Shown: positions 42,563-45,924, counted from the stretch's first letter. The stretch is DNA of 64,000 bases from Minisyncoccia bacterium (GCA_965656375.1 CBFHKH010000001.1:13432-77431), one strand, 5' to 3'. Numbers and translations are program-made. The notes: generated from the letters alone by a model not told the origin.

Positions 42563-43297
42563 ATGGATATAAGCATCATCATTCCTGCATATAATGAAGA
42601 GAAGCGAATCAAAAAGACGCTTGATGCTGTTTCAAGCTTTCTCCGTACAAGGAACATGGCATTTGAAATAATTGTTGTTGCCAATAACTGTACTGATAAC
42701 ACCGTTTCGCTTCTTGAGAATCTTAAAGAAAGCTCAATTCCAGAACTTGTAATTATAAACATTCCTCATGAAGGTATAGTCGGAAATACAAAAGGCTACG
42801 CTGTCGAAGTGGGCATGAGAGCTGCCAGGGGAGCATGGCATCTTTTTATTGACGCTGATAATGCGACTCGGTTTACAGAAGTACTTGAGTTTCTGAAATA
42901 TGGTTGTGGTGGATACGATGTGATTATCGGCTCGCGGTATATTTCCGGGGCTCATGTAGTAAAGAAACAGCCACTGTATCGTATTATATTGTCGCGTGTG
43001 AGCAACCTTTTGATTCGCCTCGTTCTTCTTCCTGGTATCTACGATACACAGTGTGGATTTAAAATGTTCCGAAAAGATGTGTCAGAAAAGATTTTTTCCC
43101 GTACGACCATCGAGGGTTGGGGAGCAGATCTCGAAATGCTTGCAATCGCTCGAGTATGGAAATTCAAGATAAAAGAAGCTCCGGTCTATTGGGAGGCGCA
43201 AGATGAATCTACCGTACGGTCACATGCCTTCTTCTATACACTCAAGGAGTTATTTGTTATACGTCATCGTGTACTGAAAGGGGATTATAAAAGATAA
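42563..43297 (+). CDS. Family-2 glycosyltransferase, polyprenyl-phosphate sugar synthase type (GtrB/DPM1-like)
   Basis: Motifs ISIIIPAYNEE, FIDADNAT and GSRY are present. Confidence 0.8.
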   Translation: MDISIIIPAYNEEKRIKKTLDAVSSFLRTRNMAFEIIVVANNCTDNTVSLLENLKESSIPELVIINIPHEGIVGNTKGYAVEVGMRAARGAWHLFIDADNATRFTEVLEFLKYGCGGYDVIIGSRYISGAHVVKKQPLYRIILSRVSNLLIRLVLLPGIYDTQCGFKMFRKDVSEKIFSRTTIEGWGADLEMLAIARVWKFKIKEAPVYWEAQDESTVRSHAFFYTLKELFVIRHRVLKGDYKR

Positions 43298-43338
43298 AAC
43301 AAAACACTCACATCTAAATGTGAGTGTTTTGTTTTATC

Positions 43339-43413
43339 TGGAGCCGCTTCTCAGACTCGAACTGAGGACCTTCGCTTTACAAAAGCGTTGCTCTACCAAC
43401 TGAGCTAAAGCGG
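43339..43413 (-). tRNA. tRNA-Thr (anticodon UGU)
   Basis: The reverse complement folds as a cloverleaf. The acceptor stem is GCCGCTT / AAGCGGC. The D arm is GCTC-AGTTGGTA-GAGC. The anticodon loop is TTTGTAA. The T arm is CTCAG-TTCGAGT-CTGAG. The discriminator is T and CCA is encoded. Confidence 0.85.
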
Positions 43414-43462
43414 CAATATAATATCTATCCTAACACCTTGTCTAAATTTACCAAAGCCGACG

Positions 43463-43512
43463 ATTCTGTCGGCTCCCCGACTGTACCTGCGTCGGGGCTG
43501 AGCTAAAGCGGC
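43463..43512. repeat. Composite intergenic repeat: one arm of the rpsB-leader palindrome (ccgacgattctgtcgg), a 7-bp hairpin (ccccgac-N9-gtcgggg), and an exact 15-nt copy of the tRNA-Thr 5' end (gccgctttagctcag on the - strand)
   Basis: The 29-nt stretch at 43461-43489 is the exact reverse complement of 45694-45722. The string gagctaaagcggc recurs at 43498-43510 and at 43401-43413. Confidence 0.55.
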
Positions 43513-43522
43513 GTATATGATT

Positions 43523-43948
43523 TTATACCTGTTCTTCTGTCTTTTGGGTTTCCTGCCCATGCTCTCGTTTTACTCGTTCCTTTATCCTTTTGATCTTCGC
43601 TTTTGACTCTATTACAGTACGCTTTACGAATGAAGGGGATCGAGGTTCTGTACTAGGCGTATTCGTTTTAAACAAAGAATGTGCCTTTGGCCATTTTCCA
43701 ACAATCCATTTCTTAGCCTTTGTTGTCAGTATGAACCAGTACTTTGCACAGGTAAGGACTATTCCTTGTACGATGTGCTTCGTCAAATATAGCATACTTT
43801 TTTCTACCTGTCTAAAGGACACTTCAGGTGTTCGCCTTTCTGTTCTTTCGGGTACGATACGGTTGGTCCGTATCTCCCATGCACGAAAGGCGAGCATCCC
43901 AAATGCAAAAATTATAGCTATAAAGAAAATAATGAAAGTGATGATCAT
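43523..43948 (-). CDS. Hypothetical membrane-anchored basic protein, co-transcribed downstream of tsf
   Basis: There is an N-terminal TM (IITFIIFFIAIIFAFGMLAF) and a Lys/Arg/Glu-rich C-terminus. The start is 2 nt after the tsf stop. Confidence 0.45.
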   Translation of the reverse strand: MIITFIIFFIAIIFAFGMLAFRAWEIRTNRIVPERTERRTPEVSFRQVEKSMLYLTKHIVQGIVLTCAKYWFILTTKAKKWIVGKWPKAHSLFKTNTPSTEPRSPSFVKRTVIESKAKIKRIKERVKREHGQETQKTEEQV

Positions 43949-43950
43949 GA

Positions 43951-44733
43951 TTACCCGATAGACTCACGAACAAATTGTACCAATGTTGCACCCTTTCCTG
44001 CAAGGAGAGCACTGATTGTGAGGTCAGGGTTTTTGATGAATGGCTGATCCATAAGAGTCTGCTCTTTGAAGTATGTAGTAATTTTACCTTCAAGCATTTT
44101 CTTTTTGATGTCTTCTGGTTTGTCAGATTCTGCTACTTCTTTCTCGAATACTTCAGTAACCTTTGCCTTGTCTTCTTCCTTGATATCCTCACGAGTCGTG
44201 AATACTGGCTTCATTGCAGCGATATGCATTGCTACATCTTTTGCAAGCTCCTGTGTTCCACCTTTGAGGGATACAACGACCGCAGCCTTTCCAGAGTGAA
44301 CGTATGCACCTACTGTTTCGCCAGTTATTTCTTCGACGCGACCGAGTTCGATTTTCTCACCGACTTTCTGTACAACTCCATTTATCATATCAGTTGATTT
44401 TTCCTTCATAGCGTCTATACCATCTACAAGAGCAATCTGTGCGAGCTCATTTGCAAGTGTAGTGAAGTCTTCATTCTTTGCGACGAAGTCAGTCTCAGAG
44501 TGAAGGACGAGGATAACTGTCTTGCCTGATCCTTCTGCTACGACGATAGTGCCATCATGAGCATCGCGGTCTGCCTTTTTCATTGCGATTGAGCTTGATT
44601 TCTTCTTGAGGATGATAAGTGCCTTTTCCATATCGCCACCTGCTTCTTCGAGGGCATTACGACATTGCATGACGGAAACGCCAGTGCTATCTCTTAATTC
44701 TTTTACCAATTGTGCGGTTATTTGTATAGACAT
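43951..44733 (-). CDS. tsf: Elongation factor Ts
   Basis: The UBA-like N-terminus ITAQLVKELRDSTGVSVMQCRNALEEAGGDMEKA is present. It lies downstream of rpsB. Confidence 0.9.
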   Translation of the reverse strand: MSIQITAQLVKELRDSTGVSVMQCRNALEEAGGDMEKALIILKKKSSSIAMKKADRDAHDGTIVVAEGSGKTVILVLHSETDFVAKNEDFTTLANELAQIALVDGIDAMKEKSTDMINGVVQKVGEKIELGRVEEITGETVGAYVHSGKAAVVVSLKGGTQELAKDVAMHIAAMKPVFTTREDIKEEDKAKVTEVFEKEVAESDKPEDIKKKMLEGKITTYFKEQTLMDQPFIKNPDLTISALLAGKGATLVQFVRESIG

Positions 44734-44969: not shown

Positions 44970-45668
44970 TTATTTCTTATCTCCAGCTGTTCCGCTTCGG
45001 TACGCGTCTTTAACAGCGTTGAGGAAGAATGAAATGCTTGATACTGATGCGTCGTTTGCAATGATAGGGAACTCAACCTGCTTGATATTGCAGTCTGTAT
45101 TGAGGACGCCGATAACAGGCAAATTCATCTTGTGAGCTTCGGTAACAGCAATGTGCTCTTTCTTTGGATCGATTACGAACATAACGTCCGGAGTGCGAGT
45201 GATTCCTGTAAGTCCCTGGAAGTTCTTTGTCATGTCATCCATCTCACGATCAATGAGAAGGCGTTCTTTCTTCGTATATTTATCGAGACCACCTTTTTCT
45301 TTCTGATCGCGGAGGTCGAGAAGCTTTGTAATGCGCTTCTTTATTTCTGGGAAATTTGTAAGTGATCCTCCAACCCAGCGCTCTCCGACATATGGCATGC
45401 CGAGTGCAAGTGCAGTTTCGATGATCTGCTGGCGAGCCTCTGCTTTTGTTCCGACAAAGAGGATCACTTTTCCTGTACTTGCAAGACGGGTGACTTCTTC
45501 GATGGCTTTTTCAAAAAGTTCGTAGCTCTTTTCAATATTTATAATATCAACGCCGTTTTTCGTTGCGAAAATGTACGGTGTTGTTGATGGATGGCGTCGG
45601 CTCTTTGAGTAGCCGTAGTGCGCACCATTCTTGAACATCTCTTCCACGTGTGTTTGTTGTGTACTCAT
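44970..45668 (-). CDS. rpsB: 30S ribosomal protein S2
   Basis: MLEAGVHFGHQ-like N-terminus (FKNGAHYGYS) and conserved core (ILFVGTKAEA...PYVGERWVGG) are present. Confidence 0.92.
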   Translation of the reverse strand: MSTQQTHVEEMFKNGAHYGYSKSRRHPSTTPYIFATKNGVDIINIEKSYELFEKAIEEVTRLASTGKVILFVGTKAEARQQIIETALALGMPYVGERWVGGSLTNFPEIKKRITKLLDLRDQKEKGGLDKYTKKERLLIDREMDDMTKNFQGLTGITRTPDVMFVIDPKKEHIAVTEAHKMNLPVIGVLNTDCNIKQVEFPIIANDASVSSISFFLNAVKDAYRSGTAGDKK

Positions 45669-45683
45669 ATTCTCTGTGCCCCG

Positions 45684-45719
45684 ACGATTCTGTCGGGGAG
45701 CCGACAGAATCGTCGGCTT
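45684..45719. repeat. Perfect 16-bp palindrome, ccgacgattctgtcgg-ggag-ccgacagaatcgtcgg, in the rpsB 5' leader. It is 15 nt upstream of the rpsB start codon on the - strand.
   Basis: Read directly from the sequence. One arm plus flank recurs in inverted orientation at 43461-43489. Confidence 0.6.
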
Positions 45720-45924
45720 TAATTATAATATCCTGCTTTCGATGCAGGTGTTCCGTTTTTAAGCATTCCAGCTTATCTACAAGGTCCTTTTTAATAAAAA
45801 ACTTCTGCCTTATCGGCAGACAGGCCTCACGGAACGTAGGACCATAATACCAGAAAAACCATTATTCTGCAAGTCTTTATTTTATTCAGTTTTTTGACCT
45901 AAAGGCTTTTTTAGAGTAGTATAA

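Follow-up and report, generated by a model that had tools for sequence, protein, structure and literature searches.

The perfect palindrome preceding rpsB, the gene for ribosomal protein S2, is a copy of E, our name for a double-hairpin element of 40-45 nt that is scattered among Patescibacteria genomes. E is an inserted sequence whose home is the border of a cassette that interrupts a resident tRNA gene within the D-arm. The best explanation of the data, to which we assign a probability of roughly 0.7, is that E is a mobile double hairpin linked to this cassette and a passenger at rpsB, and that its mobilisation would be due to a small GIY-YIG nuclease.

The palindrome was examined in a 64-kb stretch of DNA (the window), in which the minus strand carries, in order, rpsB, tsf, a 141-aa ORF and tRNA-Thr(UGU). 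An earlier sequence-only reading had quoted the palindrome correctly but placed it at 45684-45719, 3 nt away from its actual position, and had estimated that the hairpin ends about 15 nt before the AUG; the A of the rpsB ATG is in fact 12 nt past the hairpin's end. The genes and the two copies of E in the window are as follows.

45681-45716, no strand: 16-bp perfect palindrome from an inverted-repeat search, arms 45681-45696 and 45701-45716, 16/16 complementary
44970-45668, minus strand: rpsB (S2), Pfam Ribosomal_S2, E-value = 8e-69
43951-44733, minus strand: tsf (EF-Ts), from a Pfam search
43523-43948, minus strand: 141-aa ORF after tsf, conserved, without family match, from Pfam and relatives
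43339-43414, minus strand: intact tRNA-Thr(UGU), from a tRNA search and Rfam
45679-45718, minus strand: E copy B, a solo double hairpin in the rpsB 5′ UTR, AG-CCGACGATTCTGTCGG-CTCC-CCGACAGAATCGTCGG-GG, 10 nt from its end to the ATG
43455-43497, plus strand: E copy A, AG-CCGACGATTCTGTCGG-CTCC-CCGACTGTACCTGCGTCGG-GG, at the D-loop position of a tRNA-Thr 5′ fragment

The palindrome arms are CCGACGATTCTGTCGG (45681-45696) and CCGACAGAATCGTCGG (45701-45716), separated by the spacer GGAG. With up to three mismatches allowed, the 16-mer has four matches in the 64-kb window against 0.31 expected, a count that 0 of 100 shuffles reached, and its recurrence there is not chance. The partner copy at 43453-43481 is the 29-nt perfect reverse complement of 45692-45720; the sequence-only reading had described this match accurately but located it 8 nt off, at 43461-43489. 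It had also put the partner downstream of the tail gene of the tsf operon, and the partner does lie 27 nt beyond the 141-aa ORF's stop codon and 34 nt upstream of tRNA-Thr(UGU). When aligned in one orientation, the two window copies have the form AAAG-CCGACGATTCTGTCGG-CTCC-CCGAC-(5 or 8 nt)-CGTCGGGG, which spelled out is AAAG-CCGAC-GATTCT-GTCGG-CTCC-CCGAC-(loop)-C-GTCGG-GG. Their first hairpins are identical and the second loop is the sole difference, so what is repeated is a pair of small hairpins and not one palindrome arm. No third copy was found in the 64-kb window by a fuzzy scan with mismatches allowed.

Copies A and B lie in inverted orientation 2.2 kb apart and flank rpsB-tsf-ORF, as the sequence-only reading had described. 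Such an arrangement could mark the ends of a composite mobile unit carrying these genes, but the order rpsB-tsf-ORF-tRNA-Thr recurs in dozens of relatives with neither copy, and each copy has its own local explanation, given below; the bracketing is coincidental, and a composite unit is scarcely credible. The S2 protein of the window has no exact match on record. ORFs of 137-142 aa after tsf in loci L200-L208 are positional counterparts of the ORF at 43523-43948 and have no Pfam or NCBIfam family match. A perfect 22-bp inverted repeat with a 4-nt loop (AGATAAAACAAAACACTCACAT / ATGTGAGTGTTTTGTTTTATCT; 43292-43339), located between the end of a family-2 glycosyltransferase gene and the tRNA-Thr 3′ end, looks from its sequence like a bidirectional terminator.

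The family was collected with the pattern CCGAC-N4-10-GTCGGCTCCCCGAC-N4-12-GTCGG in one genome per species, for which about 0.3 chance matches are expected, and at least 119 matching stretches were recovered. Among the matches listed, 104 are labelled Patescibacteria/CPR by record title, and the labelled lineages include Saccharibacteria, Paceibacterota/Parcubacteria, Nomura-, Zambryski-, Taylor-, Yanofsky-, Kaiser-, Wolfe-, Adler-, Nealson- and Berkelbacteria. Other matches listed comprise six unclassified MAGs, six third-party MAGs labelled Gammaproteobacteria or Bacteriovoracaceae with a like architecture, and three high-GC chance matches (L067, L084 and L098). The contigs with Gammaproteobacteria or Bacteriovoracaceae labels (L008, L015, L024, L057, L064 and L106) carry the E/tRNA architecture, two of them (L024 and L106) together with a GIY-YIG gene, and their labels are probably wrong. 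The sequence-only reading had listed a small REP-like repeat family among its options, which was right in kind, with at least 119 copies across Patescibacteria, though only about 2 per 64 kb here; many scattered copies were what it had named as refuting a regulatory role, and they are present.

The layout of E is (AG CCGAC-G-N..N′-GTCGG CT)(CC CCGAC-N..N′-C-GTCGG GG), that is, two abutting hairpins with 7-bp stems, the second being an inverted unit of the first type; 13 inner sequences were found in both positions. A bulged G is present in 113 of 121 copies and a bulged C in 107 of 121. At the inner closing positions, 93% and 85% of copies have a Watson-Crick pair (C-G, U-A and A-U all occur), whereas shuffles give 61% and 53%. 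Because the E-selected sample was ascertained by fixed stems and a fixed CTCC linker, the apparent conservation of those bases is partly circular, and the nuclease-selected sample described below also has the linkers GATC, CCTC, CTTC and GGTC. The 16-bp hairpin at rpsB exists because the two loops of copy B happen to be complementary. Perfect long palindromes make up 4 of 121 family copies, the rpsB copy included, so the palindrome is an unusual state of the family and not a conserved feature. The window has 2 copies in its 64 kb, and S2-selected relatives have 2 in 364 kb; E-selected loci held about 12 extra copies per 830 kb fetched, and outside selected sites there is about 1 copy per 70-180 kb. 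The E pattern had no match in IMG/VR viral contigs, giving no sign of a phage vector.

Several observations identify E as inserted DNA. Its flanks are uniform, with A at -2 and G at -1 each in 118 of 120 copies and GG at +1,+2 in 115-118 of 121. Insertion is at CAA^C/T, with the target consensus (T/C)CAA^CT, and exact filled-versus-intact comparisons, in which a disrupted and an intact copy share one locus, revealed no target-site duplication. E is found in either orientation, adjoins gene starts and gene ends alike, with no bias of the kind a terminator would show, and at orthologous sites is present in some genomes and absent from others. Copies lie in-frame inside SecA, GatB, IleRS, LysRS, L7/L12, HtpX and other proteins, the LysRS site being identical in two genomes. 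Long ORFs translate E as ..VGEPT.. or ..VGSPT.., and the encoded residues correspond to gaps in the solved homologues of LysRS (3a74) and GatB (3h0l). Many assignments to the inside of an ORF were spurious in crude ORF-based statistics and were rechecked one by one; the verified coding copies are all 39, 42 or 45 nt long. Copies in one genome are related, since 11 of 27 within-genome pairs share a hairpin unit compared with 494 of 6994 between-genome pairs (p = 1e-6), and copies A and B are one such within-genome pair.

An origin as a MITE or IS-derived element was rejected because target-site duplication is lacking. A transposase adjoining E was also discounted: clustering of ORFs of at least 90 aa within 1.5 kb at 119 loci returned only housekeeping genes. 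Gene callers and long-ORF scans extended some proteins through E (P0002; L055, L063; VKLVGEPTETSAL...), so E can create false N-terminal extensions in annotations.

The sequence-only reading had proposed that the hairpin acts in the rpsB leader, with autoregulation by S2 in mind. The rpsB leader was compared across 80 loci recovered by S2 protein (47-90% identity), of which about 54 leaders could be anchored, in relatives at 70-90%. The leader features in the window are listed here.

45844-45872, minus strand: likely rpsB promoter, TTGCAG, 17 nt, TATTAT, conserved in 49 distinct upstream sequences
45752-45834, minus strand: conserved rpsB leader core, TTCCGTGAGG...AAGCTGGAATGCTTAAAAACGGA
45804-45820, minus strand: extra GC hairpin and T-run lengthening the GTGA-loop hairpin, terminator-like, from a terminator scan and the alignment
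45732-45748, minus strand: extra hairpin CCTGC-N7-GCAGG between leader core and E, common to L079 only

E was absent from the leaders of all of the approximately 54 anchored relatives and present only in the window and in L079 (81% S2 identity), where it occupies the same rpsB site with non-complementary loops. L120, the closest relative (90% S2 identity), lacks E and has a different hairpin in a different spot; given that the window and L079 carry E and the closer L120 does not, loss, replacement or recombination of the leader is needed. The stretch from the conserved block to the ATG measures 28 to 116 nt in relatives. Five of 54 leaders have no hairpin there and the rest have unrelated single or double hairpins at several positions, so the rpsB-leader site collects hairpins and E is one arrival. 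Four leaders (L135, L143, L152 and L182) contain two abutting hairpins of a second family, unrelated to E, whose stems are TCNNC/GNNGA (for example, TCCGCCAAAGGCGGA / TCAGCCTATGGCTGA), and a third recurrent rpsB-leader hairpin, GCCGCCTACGCCTAAAGCTACGGCGAGC, occurs in L140, L154, L162, L166, L168 and L172.

The promoter common to 49 distinct sequences is TTGCAAAATAATGGTTTTTCTGGTATTAT, from which transcription is predicted to start near 45837. Downstream of it comes an 85-nt leader with a consensus fold of three helices, a GTGA-loop hairpin and a T-run. Covariation is slight (one compensatory pair, in two sequences) because the leader is so conserved. E lies about 120 nt into a UTR of about 170 nt. 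A TATAAT beside E, which as rpsB promoter would have made E 5′-terminal, was dropped in favour of the conserved, better promoter about 170 nt upstream. Rfam searches at the gathering threshold and at E-value <= 10 returned only tRNA and chance matches, with none for the rpsB leader.

It is highly improbable that the hairpin is a selected rpsB leader structure, either an S2 operator or a protective or translational stem-loop. Its position in the 5′ UTR, 12 nt before the AUG, and its predicted stability (-30.5 kcal/mol as one long hairpin, compared with -25.6 as two hairpins) would suit such a role, as would the presence of some hairpin in the same leader stretch of most relatives. However, the relatives' hairpins are unrelated in sequence and variously placed or lacking, E itself recurs in hundreds of unrelated contexts, ORFs included, and a separate, strongly conserved leader lies upstream. 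With E absent from relatives' leaders and scattered elsewhere, the S2-operator reading fails, and E at rpsB is probably a passenger. Its stem, of about -30 kcal/mol and 10-12 nt before the AUG, would at most modulate mRNA stability or ribosome access. Judged by sequence conservation, the leader at 45752-45834 appears a better candidate for any S2 control than E, and in this clade the 85-nt sequence could be an r-protein leader not described before.

Nor do the window copies resemble intrinsic terminators in the sense in which they would be transcribed. Copy B, which the sequence-only reading had considered as part of a terminator/attenuator pair, has no U-tract in mRNA sense, where it is followed by GGCACAGAGAAU, and the terminator scan flags the antisense strand only; the hairpin of copy A is followed by CUUUGG, which is not a U-tract. 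A more general host function for E, as a terminator or insulator, an RNA-processing site or a DNA-uptake sequence, might be argued from the conservation of the stems across many CPR classes, from the ending GCCGACG..CGTCGGCTTT of Erc, so oriented in about 13 copies within 20 nt of a stop codon, and from the position of copy A after the last ORF of the rpsB operon. Yet about as many gene-end copies have the opposite orientation, without a T-run, others are in 5′ UTRs or ORFs, copies are much too sparse for an uptake sequence, and orthologous sites exist without E, leaving a host-functional motif a very faint prospect.

The setting in which E recurs is the tRNA gene. Forty-four of 124 E matches lie less than 200 nt from an intact tRNA and occupy the D-loop of an incomplete duplicate of it. 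In many cases the sequence is ...TAGCTCAG-E-TTGGTAGAGC..., as for a D-loop intron, but ARAGORN restored a tRNA in only 1 of 124 excisions, so E is not an intron; what is seen is an intact tRNA, which the fragment always has beside it, and not a tRNA restored by the removal of E. Copy A has this arrangement, made up of the following features.

43498-43512, minus strand: pseudo-copy of tRNA-Thr nt 1-15, GCCGCTTTAGCTCAG, a direct repeat of 43400-43414
43449-43454, minus strand: remaining D-loop of the fragment, TTGGTA; with E removed, 21 nt are identical to the intact tRNA
43415-43448, minus strand: 34-nt spacer from the fragment to the intact tRNA; a GIY-YIG ORF is at this position in L115, L164, L162 and L200

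Copy A thus reads GCCGCTTTAGCTCAG, CC-E′-CT, TTGGTA, then 34 nt, then intact tRNA-Thr, and its location in a tRNA-Thr 5′ fragment accounts for the 15-nt direct repeat of 43400-43414 and 43498-43512. It is a cassette remnant before tRNA-Thr from which the nuclease gene has been lost, and copy B is a solo E. A second unit in L205-L208, with the nuclease ORF cut to its first 20 nt, has a layout like that of copy A. The tRNA-Thr site is empty in most relatives, and the fragment occupies the position of the native tRNA start of these empty relatives.

Other arrangements were seen at tRNA genes. Thirteen loci (L135, L140, L143, L144, L147, L150, L152, L157, L160, L163, L167, L168 and L173) have tandem units upstream of tRNA-Thr, 1-3 per locus and without E or nuclease, each made up of a tRNA pseudo-fragment from the 5′ end (GCCGCTTTAGCTGTTTTGGTAGGTA) and about 45 nt with a -10-like box. 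The D-loop of these fragments has CAG changed to GTT, whereby the CAA^CTG target is destroyed; the units may be either cassettes that have decayed or duplicated promoters. L165 has another hairpin (CCCGCATGCATCGCTATGCGCGAAGCATTGCGG) at the D-loop position of a 5′ fragment of tRNA-Thr, about 76 nt upstream of that gene, and L189 and L191 have a degenerate E at tRNA position 10/11. In L205 a large serine recombinase gene (Resolvase/Recombinase/Zn_ribbon_recom; 1070-1661) is directly downstream of the tRNA-Thr with tandem E/GIY units, which suggests that this tRNA-Thr is also used as an integration site.

The ORF that accompanies E encodes a GIY-YIG protein of 86-89 aa and lies less than 100 nt from E in 19 E-selected loci; it was seen only once ORFs of 55-140 aa were examined, the first neighbour survey having covered those of at least 90 aa. 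The protein matches Pfam PF01541 (E-value = 4e-17), and the catalytic set Y5, Y15, G17, R25, H29 and E61 is invariant. Its AlphaFold model (pLDDT 86) is nearest to the UPF0213 proteins 1zg2 (E-value = 3e-5, 36% identity) and 1ywl and to the Slx1 nuclease domain (7cq3, TM 0.62, rmsd 2.3 A). By this model, the nuclease would be closest to the structure-specific branch of GIY-YIG enzymes and not to the I-TevI/Seg type. Read along the tRNA strand, the order that recurs is tRNA nt 1-16, E, tRNA nt 17 to about 27, 5-25 nt, the nuclease ORF and the intact tRNA, and the ORF often ends on a TAG within the tRNA's first ten bases. In ten loci (L014, L076, L080, L088, L106, L115, L162, L164, L210 and L212) this TAG is at tRNA positions 8-10; with the stop inside the tRNA, RNase P cleavage of a co-transcript would remove the stop codon.

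To remove ascertainment bias, homologues of the nuclease were fetched by protein alone (53 proteins). In this sample, a CCGAC..GTCGG double hairpin precedes the ORF, within a tRNA 5′ fragment, in 9 of 9 distinct places. These involve tRNA-Thr, Phe, Lys and Val, with the hairpin at tRNA position 16/17 or 10/11 and several linker variants, and nuclease clades track the position and orientation of E insertion. The complete form, found in L212 and L024, consists of old tRNA(1-16), E, nuclease, a new complete tRNA, E and old tRNA(17-76); the old tRNA halves pair across the cassette and the acceptor stem of the new tRNA differs. The full home layout of E is old tRNA(1-16), E, GIY-YIG gene, replacement tRNA (or its 5′ part), optionally a second E, and old tRNA(17-76). 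We did not detect a homologue of the GIY-YIG nuclease within the 64-kb window, so a partner nuclease in this genome is only putative.

The manner in which E might move can be sketched from these associations. The Slx1/UPF0213-like nuclease would recognise the E hairpin or cruciform and cut there or at a D-loop-like target, and the cutting would mobilise the cassette, and solo E copies in trans, as RAYT does for REPINs. A perfect 16-bp palindrome such as that at rpsB would probably result when one arm templated the other. E might instead have been moved by other means (another transposase, replication template switching or an RNA intermediate), its adjacency to the nuclease being an indirect effect of the harmless CAA^CTG targets that tRNA fragments offer. 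Three observations would fit such movement: the orientation of E relative to the nuclease flips, with Erc in Thr/Val/Lys/Ile-type D-loops and Efw in Arg-type, always on the CAA^ strand; solo copies occur far from any nuclease gene, of which the window has none; and relatives have tandem tRNA 5′ fragments without E or nuclease. Against it, all nine nuclease genes sampled independently of E have the double hairpin in the fragment, both S2-selected loci with E have the nuclease and the reverse holds, tRNA fragments without E carry the mutated target (CAG to GTT), and neighbours within 1.5 kb of E at 119 loci show no enrichment of any other candidate enzyme. We regard movement by such other means, the main rival reading, as rather unlikely. 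Mobilisation by the nuclease remains our preferred account, and a stronger form of it is possible, which we offer tentatively: E and the 87-aa Slx1-like nuclease may constitute an undescribed mobile system, one that invades tRNA genes but repairs them with a replacement tRNA or 5′ part, has hairpin ends that serve as the nuclease's structural substrate, and, by the action of the same nuclease, has left solo hairpins scattered phylum-wide in UTRs and in-frame in essential proteins. If that is true, E and the nuclease would be a GIY-YIG counterpart of the RAYT/REPIN partnership.

E shares traits with several known kinds of element. Rickettsia palindromic elements are about 100-150 bp long, occur in one genus and have no transposase of their own, and Ogata et al. 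in 2000 reportedly described them in-frame in conserved protein genes, translated as loop insertions. E is similar in lying in-frame in conserved protein genes and in having no transposase of its own, but it is 40-45 nt long, phylum-wide and linked to a nuclease cassette. REP/BIME/REPIN-RAYT systems of enterobacteria and pseudomonads (PMC3733652) resemble E in their short palindromic inverted doublets, which can fold into one long hairpin, in being mainly intergenic with copies related within a genome, and in an adjoining single-copy nuclease-type gene. REP elements, however, are tagged with GTAG/CGTC (PMC3733652), whereas E has no such unpaired tag and its flanks AG...GG are themselves paired (AG/CT, CC/GG). 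No Y1/HUH RAYT family was found within 1.5 kb of E at 119 loci, the linked gene being GIY-YIG; copies per genome are few, judged from the window and fetched loci, compared with hundreds; the stems are conserved across the phylum and not within a species; and E is tied to tRNA-gene fragments.

Double-hairpin elements of Allomyces mitochondria (Paquin et al. 2000, as cited in PMC2800124) are two stem-loops located between genes without flanking duplication, and PMC2800124 also cites GC palindromes that flank tRNA genes in Neurospora mitochondria. E is like these in its two stem-loops, its lack of flanking duplication and its intergenic sites, and some of the mitochondrial elements adjoin tRNA genes; they differ in being organellar and unrelated in sequence, and no report of a link to a GIY-YIG/tRNA cassette was found for them. 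Phage T4 SegB is encoded by a free-standing GIY-YIG homing endonuclease gene in a tRNA gene cluster (PMC2330249). Seg systems and the E cassette both have a GIY-YIG gene among or inside tRNA genes, with partial duplication or replacement keeping the target functional, but Seg and I-TevI enzymes exceed 200 aa and have DNA-binding domains, and Seg systems have no hairpin repeat. The E-linked nuclease, at 86-89 aa, is essentially the catalytic domain with one short extra C-terminal helix and no separate DNA-binding domain. Slx1 and UPF0213 (YhbQ-like) proteins are its best fold matches, and its size fits UPF0213, but the E-linked subfamily is distinguished by a C-terminal motif of its own, LKRxDYIEKIVxDGYIKI. 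We know of no Slx1 or UPF0213 nuclease that is mobile or resides in tRNA genes. E fails a defining test of each known kind (tag, RAYT gene, copy number, duplication or DNA-binding domain) yet combines their traits. A full-text literature search found no description of E or of GIY-YIG/tRNA cassettes in Patescibacteria, and a 2026 paper on group I introns in Patescibacteria tRNA genes does not mention E.

For annotation of these genomes, the result removes a tempting but wrong regulatory label at rpsB and points to the conserved promoter and leader in its place. E splits tRNA genes, and the pseudo-fragments confuse tRNA and gene callers; it also adds 13-15 residues to essential proteins, and it travels with a minimal nuclease of structure-specific type. 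If the partnership between nuclease and hairpin is true, it would be a compact DNA-mobility system in very small genomes and a possible source of small structure-guided nucleases.
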